DNA from: Clostridia bacterium
GTDB lineage: Bacteria; Bacillota; Clostridia; Monoglobales; Firm-18
Assembly: GCA_045654805.1 (NCBI GenBank)
Contig: JAZOOD010000027.1
Coordinates: 1,719 to 65,718 of the forward strand
DNA length: 64,000 bases
Direction of reading: 5' to 3'
In this document: positions 1 through 8,078 of the stretch, one piece after another
How positions within the stretch are numbered: the first letter of the stretch is position 1
Layout: each line of letters begins with the position of its first letter
Notes under the pieces: model-generated
What the model was told of the DNA's origin: nothing
The model's database searches: none
What the model saw: only the letters and a program-made list of their open reading frames with translations
Translations under genes and position numbers: made by a program

Positions 1-322
1 CCTGTTCGGCGGATAACTCAGATAATGTTATTTTATCAAGCACTGCAGATAATAGTTGTGGCTCGATTGGTTGTGTTTCATCTATAGCAACATCATCATT
101 TATCTCGTGATAGCATAAGTCTTCGCGGGGTATTTTAAATTCACGCAGAATCTTTCGAGAAAAAGCTTCCGCTTTTGTCTTGTTGCCCTTTACCGGAAGT
201 TTGGTCGCAAACCATTTCTCTTTTCGTTCACCTCTGACATTCGTATAAACCATTACCGCATAATATAAACCGTTCTTTTGCCTGATATAGTTTTTGACAT
301 CAATATACTGTTCTTTTTCCAT
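1..322 (-). CDS. tyrosine site-specific integrase, N-terminal part (CDS runs off the left edge)
   Basis: Absent from the ORF track because it is open at the edge. ATG at 322-320 follows a GAGGTG SD. Translation is MEKEQYIDVKNYIRQKNGLYYAVMVYTNVRGERKEKWFATKLPVKGNKTKAEAFSRKILREF..., the AP2-like arm-binding N-domain pattern of phage/ICE integrases. Confidence 0.7.
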   Translation of the reverse strand, partial: MEKEQYIDVKNYIRQKNGLYYAVMVYTNVRGERKEKWFATKLPVKGNKTKAEAFSRKILREFKIPREDLCYHEINDDVAIDETQPIEPQLLSAVLDKITLSELSAEQ

Positions 323-400
323 TTATTTTCACCTCTGTAATATCATCTCCTAATCAGGTAAATTCTATCGCACGATTAGCTATATTATATCACTACATAA

Positions 401-429
401 GAAAAAGAAGCATTGCAAGCAATGCTTCT
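401..429 (-). terminator. intrinsic terminator after the HExxH gene
   Basis: 10-bp stem AGAAGCATTG/CAATGCTTCT with a 4-nt loop, followed on the minus strand by TTTTTC. Confidence 0.6.
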
Positions 430-482
430 TTCAAACATCAAAAAAGCCAACACATTATTTTCATTCAACCAAATATGATATT

Positions 483-1124
483 TTAGTCCATGCTAATCAA
501 ATCTTGCTCATCGTATCCCAAAGCATTTCTTACAATTTTTAAAGATTCTAAAAAATGATCTTTTGCGTAATCGTCAGCAAATTTTTCGGATGGAAACTGA
601 GAATATATTTCTTCATTATATTTTTCTCCAAGAATTCGCTTCATAGGATCTAAATCATGCATTTTATAAATTTCTTCCCACACCTTTTCATATGGTTGTC
701 GAATACTTTTCTCCATTTCACAATACTCATACGATGTTTTGCCACTATTCAAAAAATATATCCAATGACCATATTCGTGTAGTATAGTATAAATTGCTAT
801 CGCCAAAGAATATTCTTTTATATATACTCTAGTTATACAACTTAATTCATCTATGTGACTTTTTATAGCCATAGGATTTCTCCCATTTTCCAGATGTAAA
901 TATTCATCAATATCTACATCTGGAAAATACAACCCCAAATCTTCATCATTATACTTTTTATCAGGATTGTGTGTACCGTCAATTACTGCCCTTGTTTCTT
1001 CTTCGCCCATAATCTTACACAAAACATAATTGTGTTTATTTAAATTATCTCTTGGTGTAAGGTGAACAGGAGCATCTATATTTAAAATTCCTATAAGTTT
1101 TCTAAAATCTATACATAAATCCAT
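483..1124 (-). CDS. putative zinc metallopeptidase (HExxH), family not recognised
   Basis: 213-aa ORF with an AGGAGG SD. Contains the HEYGH motif with Glu residues about 20 aa downstream (gluzincin-like). Its position upstream of int on the same strand recalls ImmA-type proteases. Confidence 0.45.
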   Translation of the reverse strand: MDLCIDFRKLIGILNIDAPVHLTPRDNLNKHNYVLCKIMGEEETRAVIDGTHNPDKKYNDEDLGLYFPDVDIDEYLHLENGRNPMAIKSHIDELSCITRVYIKEYSLAIAIYTILHEYGHWIYFLNSGKTSYEYCEMEKSIRQPYEKVWEEIYKMHDLDPMKRILGEKYNEEIYSQFPSEKFADDYAKDHFLESLKIVRNALGYDEQDLISMD

Positions 1125-1355
1125 TTCAAGTATTTTCCTCCTTTGTATAGTTCTTTATAATAAAACTTTTGTTATCTGCATCAATTTCGGCCATTTAATT
1201 GTCAAAAGTAAATCAACATTAATGGTTCTTATAATTATACCACAATTCATTTAATAATACAATTGGTATAGTAAACGAAAAACCATATGTCGTTTTTGTA
1301 AAGTGCAATACATTTTGTTATAAACACGAAAAGCACAGGATAAGCTACACACCCG

Positions 1356-1517
1356 ATGTTTACTATATTTTTTAGAATAAATAGTCGCCATTTTCATTTA
1401 CTCAAACAGTTGCACCTCGGTGGTCCAGACGGTGAACTTGGTGCATCATTAAGATATTTATCACAGAGATTTTCTATGCCAACAGATATGGCTAAGGGCA
1501 CACTTACTGATATCGGT
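1356..1517 (+). pseudogene. cotJC: manganese catalase / CotJC-family gene, 5' segment of an interrupted gene
   Basis: The frame from ATG 1356 reads ...LHLGGPDGELGASLRYLSQRFSMPTDMAKGTLTDIG, then leaves family homology at 1518 (VSVPK-stop). This matches the CotJC N-terminal region up to the residue just before the TEExxH motif. Confidence 0.8.
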
Positions 1518-1525
1518 GTATCAGT
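1506..1525. repeat. attL dyad ACTGATA-N6-TATCAGT centred on the GG shared with attR
   Basis: Perfect 7-bp inverted repeat. Its centre (1515-1516) lies within the GGT trinucleotide that is common to both junctions. Confidence 0.55.
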
Positions 1526-1548
1526 GCCTAAATAGCACCTTTATACAT

Positions 1549-1590
1549 AAATGGGCAAAACCTACTGATTATCAGTAAGTCTGCCCATTT
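1549..1590. repeat. nested palindrome between attL and the recombinase stop codon
   Basis: The outer arms AAATGGGCA/TGCCCATTT enclose TACTGAT-T-ATCAGTA, which reuses the ACTGAT half-site seen at attL. Confidence 0.5.
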
Positions 1591-1593
1591 CTC

Positions 1594-3333
1594 TTATAAT
1601 ATCTTACAATCTAAAATCTCAGTTCTATACCCATCTAATTTGCCTTTTGACTTATATTCAACCATAAATCTGAATGGTAAGTCTTTAATTCTGACCTCTA
1701 CTATATGCCCTTTATATACTGTTATACTATGTGTCATAGCACCAAGCAAAGCATCCATATTATCATTTTCAAAAGACAAAGCATTATCTATCTCTGCAAT
1801 AATGTTATCAATCTGATTAACTTGATTTTCTTTTTCTTGTCTTTCTTGTTCTATTCTTTCTTTTGTTACAAAGAGTTCTGAAAGCTCCTTATCTAATTTT
1901 TCTTTCTGCTCTACAAACTCTGTTTTTGTAATTTCATCAGCAAGTCTGATTTCAATGAGTTTTTGTTTTCTTTTCTCAACACTTTGAATTTTCTTTTCAA
2001 AATAATCAGTATTTAACCCATTACTTTTCTTATCTAAAGTCTTAATATCTTCTAATATCTCTTTTTTAAGCATTTCCTTGTTGTCTGCCAATATGTTCAG
2101 TATGTATAAAACAATCTGCCTTAAACTTTTGTCACTTGCCCATTCTGATTGCAAACATTCCTTTGTCCTGTCAGCAGTAGCCTTTGTATGATTATAGCAA
2201 GTCCAAGCCTTTGTCCTACCAACTGATGTTTTTTTCTGCTTACTTACAAATCTTTCTCCACACTCTCCACAGTATATCTTGCCACTTGCCCAATATCGAT
2301 TGCTATGCCTTGACTTTTGCTCTTCTGAAGGGCTACGCCTTGCAAGTTCTTTTTGTGTGGCATCCCACATATCTCTGTCTATTATAGCTATCTCTGGATG
2401 GTGGTCTTTAATATATACCATATCTTCTACATTGTGATTATATCTCTTTTTATGGTCAAGAAAGTCTGGTGTATAGGTTTTGCCTTGTAGCAAATCCCCA
2501 ACGTATTTTTCATTTCTCAATATTCTTAAAATTACTGTGTTTGACCAATCATTCTTATACTTTGCTTTACCATCTGGATTCAAAGGTCTGATACCTTCTT
2601 CTTGCAGTTCTCTTGCTATCACATAAGTACCCTTGCTCTCAATCAGATACTTATAGAAAATCTTTCTGACAATCTCTGCTTCTTCTTCAACCAAGTAAAG
2701 CTTGCCACCTTTAACCCTATATCCAAGCATATCCCTACCAAATACAACCCCTTTTTCCATCTGACGCCTTTGACCCCATTTCACACGTTCAGAGGTCTTT
2801 CTGCTCTCATCTTGTGCCAAGGATGCCATAAGGGTTAAGCGCAATTCTCCATCTTTGTCAAGAGTGTTGATGGCATCTAACACAAAGTAAACCCCAACAC
2901 CTAACTTTTTTAATAACCTTGTAATTTGCAAAGTATCAACTGTATTTCTTGCAAATCTTGAAACTTCTTTTGTGATGATAAAATCAATTTTACCAGACAA
3001 AACATCATCAAGCATTGAATTGAAACCAACACGATTTTCAGTTGTTGTACCTGTCAAACCATCATCAGAATAAACCTTAACTAATTCCCAATCATTTTGA
3101 TTGTTGATAAAATCTGTAAAAAATTTTACCTGACTTTCAAATGAGTTGGCTTGGTCATCCTTATCTGTGCTAACTCTTGCATAAGCAGCCACTCTAATTG
3201 TATCAGCCAAAACATTTCTAACACTATTTAACCCATTAATAATATTGACATTATCAATCACAGCACTACTACCATTAACAACATTTAAAATATTACTACC
3301 ATTACTACCAATTAAATTACTAAAATTCTTCAT
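1594..3333 (-). CDS. large serine recombinase (SpoIVCA/TnpX-like)
   Basis: 579 aa. Resolvase catalytic domain (YARVSTDKDDQ...SRFARN), recombinase domain, zinc ribbon (CGECG...WTCYNH) and a C-terminal coiled coil. AGAGG SD precedes the ATG. Confidence 0.9.
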   Translation of the reverse strand: MKNFSNLIGSNGSNILNVVNGSSAVIDNVNIINGLNSVRNVLADTIRVAAYARVSTDKDDQANSFESQVKFFTDFINNQNDWELVKVYSDDGLTGTTTENRVGFNSMLDDVLSGKIDFIITKEVSRFARNTVDTLQITRLLKKLGVGVYFVLDAINTLDKDGELRLTLMASLAQDESRKTSERVKWGQRRQMEKGVVFGRDMLGYRVKGGKLYLVEEEAEIVRKIFYKYLIESKGTYVIARELQEEGIRPLNPDGKAKYKNDWSNTVILRILRNEKYVGDLLQGKTYTPDFLDHKKRYNHNVEDMVYIKDHHPEIAIIDRDMWDATQKELARRSPSEEQKSRHSNRYWASGKIYCGECGERFVSKQKKTSVGRTKAWTCYNHTKATADRTKECLQSEWASDKSLRQIVLYILNILADNKEMLKKEILEDIKTLDKKSNGLNTDYFEKKIQSVEKRKQKLIEIRLADEITKTEFVEQKEKLDKELSELFVTKERIEQERQEKENQVNQIDNIIAEIDNALSFENDNMDALLGAMTHSITVYKGHIVEVRIKDLPFRFMVEYKSKGKLDGYRTEILDCKIL

Positions 3334-3382
3334 AAACTTTTTACCTCTCTAAACTATAAATTTTATCTTTTTGTATTTGGAA

Positions 3383-3402
3383 TGGTCACATTATAGCGTG
3401 AC
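3383..3402 (-). promoter_or_regulatory. palindrome GGTCAC-N8-GTGACC bracketing a TATAAT box upstream of the recombinase gene
   Basis: The minus strand reads GGTCACgcTATAATGTGACC, 50-70 nt upstream of the ATG at 3333. The -35 element is weak. Confidence 0.35.
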
Positions 3403-3421
3403 CACTCCACAATTGCAGCCC

Positions 3422-3646
3422 CTAATTTAAAAATTTAGGCGCTTTATCTAACAAATCTTTTAACTGCATATCAGAAATTAAATCTTTTTCTTTCAAATCC
3501 CTAAAAATAGCAGCCTTAAGATTATAATGTAAATTCTCTTTCTCTTTATCAGAAAGAATAACATTTACCTTATCTTTGCCAATAGACATAATAACACCAC
3601 CATTAGATGTATATGCACTACCAGCTTGACCTAATGCTCTACTCAT
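3422..3646 (-). CDS. hypothetical 74-aa protein (candidate recombination directionality factor)
   Basis: Strong GGGGGTG SD. Small charged helical C-terminus (LKEKDLISDMQLKDLLDK). Sits between the two recombinase genes. Confidence 0.5.
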   Translation of the reverse strand: MSRALGQAGSAYTSNGGVIMSIGKDKVNVILSDKEKENLHYNLKAAIFRDLKEKDLISDMQLKDLLDKAPKFLN

Positions 3647-3762
3647 TTAAGCACCCCCTGACTTGTCTTGATACTATAAATAAGTGAGCAGTGGTCATTT
3701 ATGTTAAAAAAACTGAAAAAAGCATATTTTTTTGAATTTTAGTAAAATTTCTTTAATTTATG

Positions 3763-4347
3763 TTATATTTTTTTCACCAACTGTCTTTTCTTTTCTCTTT
3801 GTAGTGTACTCTTCGATATACCTGTCATCGCTGAAACCTGTTTATATGAATGATTTTCCAACAACTGCATAGCCAGACTTAATTGTGTCTTGCTATATTT
3901 CTTTGGTCTGCCTTCTATGTAACTATCCTTTTGTCTTGCCAATTCTCTGCCTGCTTTGGTGCGTTCTACAATCATATTTCTTTCAAATTCTGCAAAAGAC
4001 AATAAGATTGTATATGTCAATCTGCCAACAGGTGTATTATCTATAACACCTAAATTGAGTATATCTATCTTAACACCTTTATCCATCAAATGCTCTATGA
4101 TGTCTAATCCTTCTCTCACATTGCGGCAAAACCTATCCATTTTGCACACAATCAGAACATCTCCACTTACTAATCTATCTACCAACTCATTAAATACAAA
4201 TCTATTATTGAAATCTTTTGCAGCAGTATAAACTTCTCTGTGTATCTCTGCTGAAGGATATTTTTCTAATATAGTCTGTTCTTGCTCTGCCAGAGAATTA
4301 TTTTCAGCCTGACCTTTGCTTGACACACGAACATATCCGTATTCCAT
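3763..4347 (-). CDS. small serine recombinase (resolvase/invertase family)
   Basis: MEYGYVRVSSKGQ catalytic motif and a C-terminal HTH (SYKQVSAMTGISKSTLQR). Start moved to ATG 4347, which sits behind an AGGTG SD. Confidence 0.88.
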   Translation of the reverse strand: MEYGYVRVSSKGQAENNSLAEQEQTILEKYPSAEIHREVYTAAKDFNNRFVFNELVDRLVSGDVLIVCKMDRFCRNVREGLDIIEHLMDKGVKIDILNLGVIDNTPVGRLTYTILLSFAEFERNMIVERTKAGRELARQKDSYIEGRPKKYSKTQLSLAMQLLENHSYKQVSAMTGISKSTLQREKKRQLVKKI

Positions 4348-4364
4348 ATCTAACACCTGCCTTA

Positions 4365-4426
4365 TGAATATATATAATGAATACCCACAAGCCTACAAGT
4401 TACCTGAATAGGCAAAGTGTATTCAT
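4365..4426. repeat. cluster of TGAATA half-sites directly upstream of the small recombinase gene
   Basis: TGAATA at 4365, 4378 and 4405, and inverted TATTCA at 4420. ATGAATAC (4377-4384) is the exact reverse complement of GTATTCAT (4419-4426). Confidence 0.35.
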
Positions 4427-4818
4427 AACTTAAAATATATGAACCATCTTTTGACGCTCTCACACGTCAATTTTTATGTAAATTTATAAAAACCTTGTCA
4501 TCTCAACACAAAACCACGATAAAAATTTTCAAATTACAAAACGCCGTCATTTCAGCCTTTTGTTGATGTCAAAATTAAATTATTGTTGATTTCTTTAATC
4601 TTAATTTTTTACGACCACTATTTAATGGTATAAGATAAATAAGACTTAAATAATCTGCAAATTTTTACATTTCACTCCCGAACTAAAACCAACACTTTTG
4701 ACACTTTTTATATCTGATGACTAAAAATTTAAAAATCAGCCTGCTGAAAAACCAATAAATTTTATGCTGGTTGAAAAAATATCATAAAATTTCCAACGCT
4801 TTTAAACAAACACTTTGC

Positions 4819-5313
4819 TTACATGACGACGCAATCAAGTCCATCAGAGAATACCATATCTTTTATTAACTCTGTATCAATCATATAATACCTTATCAAC
4901 CTGTCTGCAACCGATAAATCTTCCGCATCATCTACACCCATATAGATACTTTCTGTAGTACGATATATAACCTTACACCCAACAAGCATACAACACCCAA
5001 AGTTTAAATTTTGATTATATCTGTTCAATCTTTCAAGTGTCTGGGCTTTCTTCTTTATAAATGCTCTTGTACCAATGTTCCAGAGGTCTGCCTCTAATAC
5101 AAGCCTTTGATTTGCTCTGTCAACAACAATCTCAAATTCTTCATCATCTTTAATTGCTCTGACCATACCATTTTCTGCATCTGCTACGCTATACAACCCT
5201 AATAAGTCAAGAACTCTCCTGATAAAAACCGCTACCGTTGTAAACTTAAAACCAATATCTTTATAATTCTTATTTTTCTTAACTATCTTTTTGAAACTAC
5301 TACTATGTAACAT
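4819..5313 (-). CDS. hypothetical protein, YbjN / T3SS-chaperone-like pattern
   Basis: 164 aa with a GGGGGT SD. The alternating beta/helix pattern (FEIVVDRANQRLVLEADL...LERLNRYNQNLNFGC) resembles the YbjN family. This is a similarity judgement only. Confidence 0.4.
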   Translation of the reverse strand: MLHSSSFKKIVKKNKNYKDIGFKFTTVAVFIRRVLDLLGLYSVADAENGMVRAIKDDEEFEIVVDRANQRLVLEADLWNIGTRAFIKKKAQTLERLNRYNQNLNFGCCMLVGCKVIYRTTESIYMGVDDAEDLSVADRLIRYYMIDTELIKDMVFSDGLDCVVM

Positions 5314-5347
5314 AATCTGTTACCCCCTTATAAAAATATTTCTGCAC

Positions 5348-5379
5348 AAAAAAAGTGCCGTTACCGTTTGTAACGACAC
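5348..5379 (-). terminator. intrinsic terminator after the lipoprotein genes
   Basis: Minus strand reads GTGTCGTTAC-AAACG-GTAACGGCAC (10-bp stem including one G-U pair) followed by TTTTTTT. Confidence 0.65.
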
Positions 5380-5628
5380 ATAAAGTCTTTTATGACCTTT
5401 GCTCTATTCATTATTTAATCTCTTTAGCATCCACCAAAGAAAACCACCGCCACCGCCACCAACTTAAATAAATAATTCAAGCCGTGCCGTTGCACTCATT
5501 ACCAAAATTACAAGCAAATCACATACTCATATAACTTACTCTTATATAATTATAACTCTTCCTGATACTATAGTCAATGCCCATGAACAAAATATTTTTT
5601 TCATCACGAACACAAAAATTAATCTGTA

Positions 5629-5955
5629 TTATTTTTTACACATAATAACATAATTATCATATCTAACTAATTCAATCATTTCATCGCTTTCAATAATAGT
5701 ATAATCTGCCTGTGTATCTTCATATTTTAACGAAATTACATCTCCGTCGATTTCCCACTCAAACTCACTTTTTGCACTACCTAACATATGAAATCCTGTT
5801 CCATCCTTTTCAAAATCATATATAACAACCTTATCTGCAAAGTAATCACAAGTCCATTTTCTCTCAACTAAATAATCTTCAAAATTCTTTCCGCAACCTG
5901 ATAACAACATTATCAAAGCCATTACAATAATACCAACGTTAAAAAACTTTTTCAT
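5629..5955 (-). CDS. small lipoprotein (lipocalin-like pattern)
   Basis: Signal peptide with the lipobox LLSGC. AAGGAGAA SD. Confidence 0.7.
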   Translation of the reverse strand: MKKFFNVGIIVMALIMLLSGCGKNFEDYLVERKWTCDYFADKVVIYDFEKDGTGFHMLGSAKSEFEWEIDGDVISLKYEDTQADYTIIESDEMIELVRYDNYVIMCKK

Positions 5956-5992
5956 AATTCTGTTCTCCTTTTCATTTGTAACTTTTTATAAT

Positions 5993-6823
5993 TTACATAA
6001 CAACATCTGTAAATGCAAGTGTATATGTTCCAGGTGCAAGTTTACTTGTATTAGTTATATATATGCTTTCAGAAAATTTTTCATTAAGATTAATGTTATG
6101 CTTTGTAATCATTCCTGACCCCACAACAACATTAGAACTATCATATAACTTCCAATTCATAGTGCAGTTCATAGATGCACCACCTTTAAAATCAAAGGTT
6201 TTTTCACAAAGCAAATCAAGAGTAATCTTTTCAGATGTAACATTTACTTTTGCTTCTCTTATTGTACAGGTAGAATATTTATCGCCTCTGCTGCCTATCC
6301 AATGTACATCTTGTGGCAAGTTGTTTTTTAAAACAACTGATATATTTGGCTTATTCTCTTTAGTGGTTGATGCTTGTGTTTCATCTGTTTTCTTTTCAAC
6401 CACATTAACTTTACATCTGTTAGTTGTTGATTTCTCATCTATTCCAATTTCAACAAAGATATAAGTTGTTCCAAGTGCTACCGCTTGAAACGTTTCAAAG
6501 CCTGGCTCATCAGTGTTAATTAGTCCTTTGTTAGGGTCCCAATCTCCGCCATATCTTAATATACGGGTATCACTTGTTTCTCTTTCACCATTCTCTTTTT
6601 GATAATAAAAAAGTGGTCTTTCTTTGTCCTTTGGAGAGTATTCAATTTGAAATTCTTCACCTAATTCAACAGTTATTTCTTCAGGTGATATTACCCAATT
6701 TATAATCTCGTCAGGTTTAGGTTCATTAGAAACATTTGTACTTTCTGTATTACTACAAGAAATAAGTGTTAATGAAATAAGCAAACATAAGCATACTGTT
6801 ATTAATTTTTTTGTGTTTTTCAT
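5993..6823 (-). CDS. lipoprotein, unknown function
   Basis: Signal peptide with the lipobox LISCS. 276 aa, beta-rich. GGAG SD. Confidence 0.7.
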   Translation of the reverse strand: MKNTKKLITVCLCLLISLTLISCSNTESTNVSNEPKPDEIINWVISPEEITVELGEEFQIEYSPKDKERPLFYYQKENGERETSDTRILRYGGDWDPNKGLINTDEPGFETFQAVALGTTYIFVEIGIDEKSTTNRCKVNVVEKKTDETQASTTKENKPNISVVLKNNLPQDVHWIGSRGDKYSTCTIREAKVNVTSEKITLDLLCEKTFDFKGGASMNCTMNWKLYDSSNVVVGSGMITKHNINLNEKFSESIYITNTSKLAPGTYTLAFTDVVM

Positions 6824-6841
6824 AGTAATTCTCCTTGTATT

Positions 6842-6869
6842 AAAAAATGCGTGGGCAAATGCCCACGCA
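6842..6869 (-). terminator. leader terminator (attenuator) 19 nt upstream of the lipoprotein ATG
   Basis: Minus strand reads UGCGUGGGC-AUUU-GCCCACGCA followed by UUUUUU. It lies just before the SD at 6834-6831. Confidence 0.6.
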
Positions 6870-6894
6870 CGAAAAACGAGGCAATGCTCCTGTT

Positions 6895-7000
6895 GTCACG
6901 CAGTTCACTATTCCTACATCGTATGGAAAATGATAAGCAAGCCTGCGTTTTTACCAACGCAAGCCACACGATATAAGAATAACATATTAAACTACGTGAC
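6895..7000 (-). promoter_or_regulatory. structured 5' leader (riboswitch-like, class unknown)
   Basis: Three nested helices on the minus-strand RNA. P1 pairs 7000-6991 with 6904-6895 (10 bp). P2 pairs 6972-6964 with 6926-6918 (9 bp). P3 pairs 6963-6956 with 6949-6942 (8 bp). Each helix contains a G-U pair that would be an A-C mismatch on the other strand. Confidence 0.45.
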
Positions 7001-7006
7001 TAATAC

Positions 7007-7035
7007 ATTTTAACATAAAATTTATCTCTTTTCAA
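7007..7035 (-). promoter_or_regulatory. sigma-A type promoter for the leader and lipoprotein operon
   Basis: TTGAAA, 17 nt spacer, TAAAAT on the minus strand. Confidence 0.6.
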
Positions 7036-7060
7036 TACTTTTACAAATATTTACCTGATT

Positions 7061-7090
7061 AAACAAAAAATAACCGTATTGACTACGGCT
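7061..7090 (-). terminator. intrinsic terminator with no associated ORF
   Basis: Minus strand reads AGCCGUA-GUCAA-UACGGUU followed by AUUUUUUGUUU. Confidence 0.4.
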
Positions 7091-7361
7091 ACTTTATACA
7101 TATATCCCAACCACCCACCCTTGCAAAATACCATAAGGATATAATTCCCATATGATTTAATGTTGTATAAGAATTTTAAGTTGTATTATTATTTTATACT
7201 AGTATATATACCTCTCTATATTAATAACAACGACACTGTCTAAATTTATGTCCAATATAAAACTTTTTTTATAAATATTTTCCAAAATAATACTTTTCTG
7301 TGTTATTGCTGAAAATAAAATTTTTAAATTTTTCTATGTATTCCATATCAAGCAGAAGGCA

Positions 7362-7766
7362 GGTACAGAAGAACTTGCACACCTTGAAATTGTTGGTGCA
7401 ATGGTTCATCAGTTAACCAGAAATTTATCTATGAAACAAATTAAAGAACAAGGTTTTGGTGATTATTATACAGACCACGGTGTTGGCGTATATCCACAGA
7501 GTGCAGCAGGTACTCCCTGGTCAGCTGCAACAATTGCTGTAAAAGGTGATGTAATTGCAGACCTCAACGAAAACCTTGCTGCTGAACAAAAAGCAAGAGC
7601 AACCTACGAAAATCTGCTAAAATTAGCTGATGATCCTGATGTAATTGAACCTCTAAAATTTCTTCGTACAAGAGAAATTGTTCATTATCAACGTTTCGGT
7701 GAAGTTTTAAATGATATTCAACAAAAAATGTCATCTAAAAACAAATTTTATTTTAACAAAAAATGA
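7362..7766 (+). pseudogene. cotJC: manganese catalase / CotJC-family gene, 3' segment of an interrupted gene
   Basis: GTEELAHLEIVGAMVHQL...AAEQKARATYENLL...FLRTREIVHYQRF, with the ExxH and REIVH metal-ligand motifs. It is in frame with the 5' segment when 1517 is joined to 7365. Confidence 0.85.
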
Positions 7767-7833: not shown

Positions 7834-7924
7834 TGGCGGAGAAGGAGAGATTTGAACTCTCGCGCCGGTTTCCCGACCTACACCCTTAGCAGGGGCGCCT
7901 CTTCGGCCTCTTGAGTACTTCTCC
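7834..7924 (-). tRNA. tRNA-Ser (anticodon GCU)
   Basis: 91 nt. GGAGAAG...CT-GCT-AA anticodon loop, long variable arm, GTTCAAATC T-loop and encoded CCA. Confidence 0.9.
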
Positions 7925-7988: not shown

Positions 7989-8078
7989 TGGAGGAGAGGG
8001 GCGGATTCGAACCCCCGGACGGCGCAAACCGTCACTGGTTTTCAAGACCAGCTCTTTAAACCACTCAGACACCTCTCC
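7989..8078 (-). tRNA. tRNA-Ser (anticodon UGA)
   Basis: 90 nt. GGAGAGG...CT-TGA-AA anticodon loop, long variable arm, GTTCGAATC T-loop and encoded CCA. Confidence 0.9.

Follow-up and report, generated by a model that had tools for sequence, protein, structure and literature searches.

Genes used in terminally differentiating cells are interrupted by mobile elements in several bacteria. The skin element spans 48 kb in Bacillus subtilis and SPbeta spans 134 kb, and the heterocyst elements of Anabaena lie in nifD, fdxN and hupL with the recombinases XisA, XisF and XisC, of which XisA and XisC are tyrosine recombinases. The cotJ genes of B. subtilis are expressed in the mother cell under sigma-E. 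Elements of the sporulation class that have been tested excise during sporulation, using a large serine recombinase (LSR) together with a recombination directionality factor (PMC4191935, PMC5595907, PMC5025042, PMC10747680); sporulation excision is demonstrated for SPbeta, skin and gin, and in part for yin. The skin element in sigK has SpoIVCA as its recombinase. Its counterpart in Clostridioides difficile uses the recombinase CD1231 and the directionality factor CD1234 (PMC5025042). An interrupted cotJC is mentioned in one line in a preprint on SPbeta relatives (bioRxiv 10.1101/2021.11.22.469490, citing Abe et al. 2013), and a skin-like element in cotJC of Laceyella sacchari is mentioned briefly by Galperin et al. 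2022 (bioRxiv 10.1101/2022.02.25.481979). Here, a 64,000-nucleotide stretch of a Clostridia genome (contig JAZOOD010000027.1, referred to as the window) was analyzed, in which a cotJC gene for a manganese catalase is split by a 5.8-kb LSR element, hereafter element B.

By analogy with the systems above, element B is best read as a site-specific integrative element that would undergo developmental excision during sporulation, a reading given a probability of roughly 0.6. A preliminary description of the window had proposed a skin-type target that might be uncatalogued; interrupted cotJC genes were already mentioned in the literature, and the family and site detail given below was not found there.

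The split cotJC gene and its empty site

The gene and the intervening element occupy the following positions.

1419..1517, plus strand: cotJC middle fragment, codons 30-62 (GGPDGE...TDIG), with the first metal ligand Glu35; 100% amino acid (aa) and 85% nucleotide (nt) identity to the relative P0002/L002; 1JKU alignment
1518..7364, no strand: element B, 5,847 bp, intervening in cotJC; precisely absent in L001, closest relative L098
7365..7766, plus strand: cotJC C-terminal fragment, codons 63-195 and stop, with the ExxH, Glu136 and His170 ligand positions; 91% aa identity to P0002; 1JKU alignment

The middle fragment encodes GGPDGELGASLRYLSQRFSMPTDMAKGTLTDIG and then runs into VSVPK and a stop codon, and the C-terminal part, read from 7362 to 7766, translates to GTEELAHLEIVGAMVHQL...FLRTREIVHYQRFGEVLNDIQQKMSSKNKFYFNKK-stop (its ending also given as HYQRFGEVLNDIQQKMSSKNKFYFNKK-stop). 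The product of the 1517|7365 join matches Pfam PF05067 Mn_catalase (E=1.7e-42) and is 93% identical to intact P0002 (195 aa) without gaps across the junction, intact metagenome homologues being 192-197 aa long. In an alignment of the PF05067 protein with 1JKU, the Mn catalase of Lactobacillus plantarum, residues E35, E65, H68, E136 and H170 fall in ligand columns, which we take to be Glu35, Glu66, His69, Glu148 and His181 in 1JKU numbering. The break lies between the Glu35 column and the ExxH motif (Glu66/His69 of 1JKU). The split had been described as leaving collinear, in-frame halves that separate the first metal-ligand region from ExxH, and these points hold for codons 30-62 and 63-195.

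The predicted join is also present in a metagenome. ENA contig k141_335623 (sample ERZ27317055, 877 bp; L001) is 100% identical to window positions 1224-1517 fused to 7362-7702, and the fusion keeps a 3-base GGT overlap, in frame and collinear with intact homologues. Because L001 is 100% identical with the two window pieces directly fused, a precise empty site of element B exists, at the position that had been predicted. An assembly artefact or chimeric contig might be suspected, as the window probably comes from a metagenome-assembled genome, but the same codon-precise architecture is present in dozens of independent assemblies and in isolate genomes, leaving an artefact a negligible probability.

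The host had been regarded as a spore former, in agreement with Pfam matches within the window to Spore_YtfJ, Spore_YunB, a SleB-like Hydrolase_2 with PG_binding_1, and DUF2953/YtfI. Directly downstream of cotJC are two tRNA-Ser genes (GCT, TGA) at 7834-7924 and 7989-8078 on the minus strand, followed by genes that were read by eye and are presumably pth and prs. The chromosomal context of cotJC is not conserved, because its neighbours differ in relatives (L003, L098).

Recombinase family, attachment sites and partner reading frame

All open reading frames (ORFs) of element B are on the minus strand. Its features are as follows.

1490..1545, no strand: attL of element B, probable crossover GG at 1515-1516; junction ACTGATATCGG|TGTATCAGTGCCTAAATAGCACC
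1553..1586, minus strand: palindromic hairpin just 3' of the LSR stop, possibly a terminator; one arm resembles the left half of the host attB
1594..3333, minus strand: LSR, 579 aa; PF00239, PF07508, PF13408, and phrog_95 integrase
3379..3408, minus strand: stem-loop separating the small ORF from the LSR gene, 13 bp long in the window and in part conserved among relatives; -20.5 kcal/mol, z = -2.5, sequence conserved in L011, L012 and L018
3422..3646, minus strand: 74-aa ORF, candidate recombination directionality factor by motif linkage to the LSR
3763..4356, minus strand: small serine recombinase of resolvase/invertase type, 197 aa; PF00239 and a helix-turn-helix (HTH) domain, phrog_125 DNA invertase
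4819..5313, minus strand: 164-aa ORF, conserved core of the element subgroup; 55-85% identical in L011, L012 and L018, a 164-aa gene in L098, no family match
5629..6823, minus strand: variable cargo, two lipoproteins predicted with Pfam, 108 aa with DUF5640 (5629-5955) and 276 aa (5993-6823)
7340..7385, no strand: attR of element B, probable crossover GG at 7362-7363; junction CAAGCAGAAGGCAGG|TACAGAAGAA

As had been stated, 76 bp separate the LSR stop codon from the junction. Pfam scores were E=1.7e-31 for PF00239 Resolvase, E=6.9e-21 for PF07508 Recombinase and E=6.3e-7 for PF13408 Zn_ribbon_recom, and the catalytic motif YARVST with Ser55 was invariant in 16 aligned relatives. The best NCBIfam match, XisF, fell far under its cutoff, and a weak CdvA-like match at residues 448-519 was the sole hint of a coiled coil.

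To place element B in its family, an LSR profile scan was made of one genome per GTDB species, and it returned 80 loci at 44-68% LSR identity; LSR homologues as a whole number in the thousands. Hosts include Oscillospiraceae, Lachnospiraceae, Ruminococcus, Butyricicoccus, Roseburia, Acetatifactor and Defluviitaleaceae, and two carriers are isolates, Caldicoprobacter algeriensis TH7C1 (L081, NZ_JAHUQD010000024) and strain 1XD8-76 (L053, RAZE01000004). A cotJC fragment broken at residues 58-63 was found by tblastn in 69/80 LSR loci. The LSR is antisense and less than 400 bp from the N-terminal cotJC fragment in about 43 loci, as in the window, and sense beside the C-terminal fragment in about 13 (L024, L026, L028, L056, L078, L080, L081, L084 and others); the remaining loci mostly reach a contig edge or have a few genes between LSR and cotJC. 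For most of the 69 loci, no more than 400 bp separate the fragment from the 3' end of the LSR. The distance between the end of the LSR match and the neighbouring cotJC fragment ranges in relatives from about -46 to 375 bp and is typically 20-140 bp. The sense-LSR loci keep the orientation of the att arms relative to cotJC, and the GG/CC core is therefore flipped relative to the LSR gene. Elements with both cotJC halves visible (25 loci) measure 3.3-11.7 kb, with a median of 7.3 kb.

The junctions of the family are codon-precise, reading ...ACNGAYATHGG | TRTATCGGT..AAATTGCRCAT on the left and ATGYGCAATWTCGATACCGATAYMGG | NACNGARGAR on the right. From these consensus sequences it follows that the element ends are inverted repeats and that attP is a near-palindrome centred on GG. 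Dyad-symmetric arms of the form ATGYGCAATTTCGATACCGATA..GG..TATCGGTATCGAAATTGCRCAT recur in about 50 loci, the window's own arms being less symmetric. For the window, the predicted attB is ...GATATCGG|TACAGAAG... (1516|7364) and the predicted attP is ...GGCAGG|TGTATCAG... (7363|1517). The GGT reported earlier as shared by both junctions is indeed present, at 1515-1517 and 7362-7364, but the recombination core is probably shorter: in L098, attL reads ...ATCGG|TGTATCAG and attR reads ...GGCAGG|AAACGAG, so that the overlap is GG only. The crossover dinucleotide is thus probably GG, inside the Gly62 codon. The sites are of the LSR type, being short imperfect dyads with a 2-bp crossover and no long direct repeats.

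Five relatives are inserted outside cotJC, at look-alikes of the attB half-site (ACCGATRTAGGT, ACAGAGGAGG), and this resemblance suggests targeting by sequence and not by gene. LSR relatives outside cotJC at L025, L065 and L082, for example at ACCGATGTAGGT|GTATCAG, look like pseudo-site insertions. Two human faecal records labelled 'UNVERIFIED: Bacteriophage sp.', MT839280.1 (L096) and MT837874.1 (L097), are in fact chromosomal LSR-cotJC junction fragments; their LSRs are 40-43% identical to that of the window, and neither is a phage genome or an excised circle.

Over 1418-5598 the closest relative of element B, L098, shows 88.9% identity; it occupies a cotJA-cotJB-cotJC operon that is otherwise intact, in a different host. 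The two elements have a common core of LSR, 74-aa ORF, small recombinase and 164-aa ORF, with different cargo: the lipoprotein cargo of the window recurs only in L012, at 87-91%, and a GIY-YIG gene takes its place in L098. The small serine recombinase is a conserved part of this subgroup (71-88% identical in L009, L011, L012 and L018), and its gene shows about 65-69% nt identity to plasmid recombinase genes. Inverted repeats that could bound an invertible segment were looked for in connection with it, and none was convincing. In other subgroups the LSR modules adjoin unrelated small serine recombinases (L064, L065, L072, L074, L077).

A PHROGs scan of the element revealed no phage structural, packaging or lysis genes and matched only the integrase and the DNA invertase, in keeping with the earlier description of an element lacking phage genes. 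The best LSR match in a phage record was 42.5% identical, and that record is itself a chromosomal fragment. Similarity searches against plasmids and phages yielded generic recombinase matches and no carrier replicon, and none of the exact element-B proteins (LSR, attL ORF, small recombinase, lipoprotein) was on record; the miss for the small recombinase may stem from a GTG start.

A small ORF of 45-80 aa directly upstream of the LSR accompanies the family and has a conserved C-terminal motif, LKAAIFRDLKEKDLISDMQLKDLL in the window and typically LKRGIYKELHKRSLLSDAQLNSLL in relatives. The motif LK.GIYKELH.R.LLSD.QL had 65 matches in 1.29 Mb of locus sequence, 65/65 of them within 500 nt upstream of an LSR, in 65/81 loci. 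The size, position and strict linkage of the small ORF make it the obvious candidate for a directionality factor comparable to SprB, GirX and CD1234, and the 74-aa ORF of element B may act in this role. The 74-aa family has no match in Pfam, NCBIfam or PHROGs, and an exhaustive phmmer search with the 74-aa ORF gave only 3 matches. A single-sequence AlphaFold model of medium confidence (predicted local distance difference test, pLDDT, 69.5) has a beta-hairpin and then two helices, and Foldseek gave no PDB match for it at E<=0.001.

Several smaller features accompany the LSR gene. At its 5' end (3267-3320, minus strand), where the start codon is uncertain, a tandem 27-nt repeat encodes a low-complexity Asn/Gly/Ser-rich N-terminal extension before the catalytic domain. 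The hairpin at 1553-1586 contains a 17-nt stretch 94% complementary to the left half of the host attB at 1496-1512 (GGGCACACTTACTGATA), a match that may be fortuitous or may reflect a terminator or an additional site for recombinase binding. In the stem-loop at 3379-3408 the loop contains TATAAT and no run of T follows; the structure could be a regulatory or processing element for LSR expression.

The LSR genes are under purifying selection, with ratios of nonsynonymous to synonymous substitution rates (dN/dS) of 0.02-0.21 between family members. Their synonymous rates (dS) are far below those of the flanking cotJC in the same genome pairs (0.04 vs 1.3 for L054/L055), and the elements are therefore younger than the divergence of their hosts and horizontally mobile. 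Dating of the insertion by dN/dS, for selection on cotJC after insertion, was uninformative, as LSR dS is much lower than cotJC dS.

Element A and further insertion sites in cotJC

The cotJC gene of the window is interrupted a second time, at codon 29/30, by an element referred to as element A.

1..1418, no strand: right-hand end of element A, inserted at cotJC codon 29/30 and continuing past the left window edge; comparisons with L004, L088, L090 and L091
2..322, minus strand: N-terminal part of a tyrosine-integrase-like gene in element A, cut by the window edge; homologues 95% identical, with PF14659
483..1124, minus strand: 213-aa ORF, element A cargo; no Pfam, PHROG or NCBIfam match, exact protein in four ENA contigs
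1234..1418, no strand: terminal arm of element A, conserved among relatives and probably holding the att half-site; aligns, with indels, at 77-81% nt identity to L088, L090 and L091

Window positions 270-1423 match L004, a contig of another sample, at 99.7% identity; from 1424, where L004 continues into a different, GC-richer cotJC allele, identity falls to about 65%. Because identity drops there, positions 1-1418 are the right end of an element that occupies the same codon (Tyr29|Gly30) in two hosts. The stretches 1-431 and 1234-1426 are conserved in L088, L090 and L091, and in L090 and L091 the right arm abuts cotJC codon 30. L088 (12.7 kb) carries, in this order, cotJA-cotJB-cotJC(1-~29), a 482-aa LSR in antisense, HTH_3 and DUF3990 genes, a fragmented tyrosine integrase (PF14659 + PF00589), cargo, and the conserved right arm; the right flank beyond the element-A junction is not cotJC-like. 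The identity of the cut integrase fragment at 2-322, which alone gave nothing in a Pfam scan, was taken from homologues in L088-L091, where the PF00589 catalytic part follows as a short separate fragment (L088/L089) or within a 316-aa ORF (L090/L091). By analogy with L088, the ~480-aa LSR of element A and cotJA-cotJB-cotJC(1-29) should lie about 5-6 kb to the left of the window.

Element A has displaced cotJA and cotJB in the window. Neither these genes nor cotJC codons 1-29 were found within the 64 kb, and cotJC is not the third gene of a cotJA-cotJB-cotJC operon there as it is in L002, L003, L088 and L098. Intact close homologues start MWSYEKKLQYPVNIKNPNPKTAKLIISQY-GGPDGE; the window has MFTIFFRINSRHFHLLKQLHL-GGPDGE. 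An ATG at 1356 was considered as a replacement N-terminus supplied by element A and was rejected, the corresponding frame in L090 and L091 having stop codons and no ATG; this ATG and the next 21 codons are a chance ORF. The join had been expected to give a CotJC of about 187 aa, but since the 21-codon frame is not kept in L090/L091 that product is partly read-through of the element-A arm: its first 21 residues (MFTIFFRINSRHFHLLKQLHL) are foreign, and cotJC homology begins only at 1419, codon 30. The related expectation that loss of the 5.8-kb element restores the gene also falls, for excision would leave a 5'-truncated gene lacking cotJA, cotJB and the native promoter. With element A at codon 29/30, excision of element B alone cannot rebuild the gene, and a functional gene in this genome therefore needs two independent excisions.

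A gene broken twice and cut off from cotJA, cotJB and its promoter might be a dead relic, that is, an old immobile insertion between decaying pseudogene pieces. The intact LSR ORF under purifying selection, two intact att sites, an empty site with 100% identical flanks and an 89% identical element in another host (L098) argue otherwise, as do the cotJC pieces themselves, which retain 91-100% protein identity to intact relatives despite 78-85% nt identity, and a relic is considered very improbable.

Across the loci, insertions recur with codon precision at no fewer than four sites in cotJC, each of them beside a metal-ligand codon.

Site A, Y29|G30, CAGTAY|GGNGGNCC: window, L011, L012, L029, L044, L073, L076, L077, L084
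Site B, G62|T63: element B and the LSR family of the window
Site C, inside the Glu136 codon, GCNGCNGA|: L015, L026, L038, L059, L061, L073, L090, L091
Site D, after QRFG(E/D)A: L001, L011, L020, L040

The site-A LSRs of L012, L084 and L088 are 43-47% identical to each other, with L076 as a further lineage, and the site-C LSRs carry DUF4368 (L090 vs L038, 57% identical). Identity among the site-A groups, the site-C group and the site-B family is only 23-31%, and distinct LSR lineages serve these three sites. At the site-D junction of L001 a weak HTH_17 (excisionase-like) ORF was observed. Several copies are split repeatedly: at A and B in the window, at A, B and C in L073, and at A, B and D in L011. 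L001, which has the same sequence background as the window, carries A and D with B empty, its site-D insertion lying near codon 176, and L090 and L091 carry A and C with B empty. It is possible, though rated at somewhat less than even odds, that cotJC is a multi-site landing pad bearing two to three elements per copy, the coat enzyme being rebuilt by parallel rearrangements in the mother cell. In C. difficile R20291, the functional prophage phi027 adjoins a third cotJC-like Mn-catalase gene, CDR20291_1465 (PMC11222575).

Proposed developmental excision and comparison with described elements

In the proposed course of events, a small non-phage element would have been inserted by its LSR through attP x attB recombination at the GG in the Gly62 codon, just before ExxH. 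The family module consists of the small ORF, the LSR and a near-palindromic attP, with members nearly always at the same codon. The reverse reaction, attL x attR, restores the frame exactly, with cotJC codons 1-29 still absent here owing to element A. On the model of skin, SPbeta, gin and yin, excision would be performed by the LSR with the 74-aa ORF product as directionality factor, and would occur mostly in the mother cell during its terminal differentiation, this being the cell that expresses cotJ. The sequences establish the layout of the locus, the exactness of the empty site, the conserved site and module, the horizontal movement and the double interruption, whereas the part played by the small ORF and the stage and cell type of excision are inferred. 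The insertion does lie within the coding sequence of a gene of mother-cell sporulation type (cotJC-type, PF05067), mother-cell expression being taken from B. subtilis.

Several observations weigh against developmental excision. Regular expressions for sigma-E and sigma-K promoters matched upstream of 7/65 small ORFs, vs 2.3 expected and a shuffle maximum of 8, and such motifs are thus not significantly enriched; a sigma-70 scan had no interpretable outcome. Searches of the viral and JGI metagenome collections did not turn up an excised-circle (attP) sequence: the exact window 24-mer and a degenerate family pattern had 0 matches in viral_contigs, and the degenerate pattern had 4 chance matches in metagenome_contigs (JGI), none with an LSR or cotJC. 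With the element-A junction kept and another insertion near codon 176, L001 looks more like a strain variant than like a mother-cell product. Since the elements move horizontally, the intactness of the fragments is no evidence of selection after insertion. Some relatives seem to occupy cotJC-like pseudo-sites in other genes. Finally, B. subtilis and C. difficile can largely do without their cotJC-type genes, mutants having mild phenotypes (PMC11222575), so inactivation could be tolerated.

The non-significant promoter motifs, the missing circle junction, the strain-variant look of L001 and the dispensability of cotJC make a selfish element in a safe harbour the main rival. Such an element would use the highly conserved metal-ligand DNA of a dispensable gene as a widely occurring attB, inactivate cotJC and leave only on transfer, the host doing without the enzyme or using a paralogue. 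Clear horizontal mobility, the insertions at pseudo-sites outside cotJC, the mild mutant phenotypes (PMC11222575) and an empty versus occupied state resembling strain polymorphism all agree with it, as does the position of all four sites beside the most conserved codons, which is expected of sequence-driven targeting. On the other side, the surveyed cotJC fragments show no frameshift or premature stop except at the other recurrent insertion sites, and this lack of decay extends over 69 independent loci, doubly and triply split genes included. A conserved, dedicated partner ORF suggests regulated excision, and the studied LSR elements in mother-cell genes (SPbeta, gin, yin) excise during sporulation. 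Furthermore, the convergence of several LSR lineages on one mother-cell gene is easier to understand if insertion is free of cost through reversal in the mother cell. The safe-harbour explanation is rated about half as probable as developmental excision, which is the reading retained.

The searchable literature, Abe 2013 itself excepted, contained no experiment on cotJC elements and no site-conserved LSR family, att sites, linked small ORF, four sites or multiply split copies. The earlier mentions of cotJC are single lines that describe the same target and a skin-like element and give no att sites, family-wide site conservation, partner ORF, multi-site picture or gut Clostridia. What is new most probably lies in the picture across the whole family and its several sites. 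With it, the gene-intervening elements of sporulation gain a well-defined, very widespread family, mostly in uncultured gut Clostridia that have hardly been surveyed for such rearrangements. Split cotJC genes are likely mis-annotated as pseudogenes and their junctions as 'phage' contigs, the two GenBank 'Bacteriophage sp.' records being such junctions. For experiments, the attL, attR, attB and attP sequences, the crossover dinucleotide, a candidate directionality factor and two cultured carriers are at hand. The diverged LSR/att pairs with a co-evolving small partner, together with three further LSR lineages at neighbouring sites, would represent natural orthogonal integrase sets for genome engineering, and copies of cotJC with several elements make it testable whether insertion into mother-cell genes is a cost-free strategy for mobile elements.

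Among the described systems, skin is prophage-derived and lies in a regulator essential for late sporulation, whereas cotJC encodes a structural or enzymatic coat component that is probably dispensable. SPbeta in spsM (SprA/SprB; PMC4191935, PMC5499854) resembles element B in that an LSR and a small directionality factor rebuild a spore-surface gene; SPbeta is, however, an active phage, and element B is without phage genes by PHROGs. The gin element in gerE of Bacillus cereus ATCC 10987 (LSR GirC and directionality factor GirX; PMC5595907) is, like element B, a non-phage element within a short mother-cell sporulation gene. Both have an LSR for integration (a role predicted for element B from its sequence), a very small accessory protein, extra serine recombinase gene(s) and att sites that are imperfect inverted repeats. 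They differ in that gin measures 28.6 kb and lies in gerE of bacilli, whereas element B measures 5.8 kb, lies in cotJC of Clostridia and is known from sequence alone, and their small ORFs are unrelated. The heterocyst elements are likewise excised in a terminally differentiated cell, several per cell, in a different phylum and cell type; should the landing-pad picture be correct, cotJC would be the sporulation counterpart of the multiply interrupted heterocyst nif genes, common in gut commensals.

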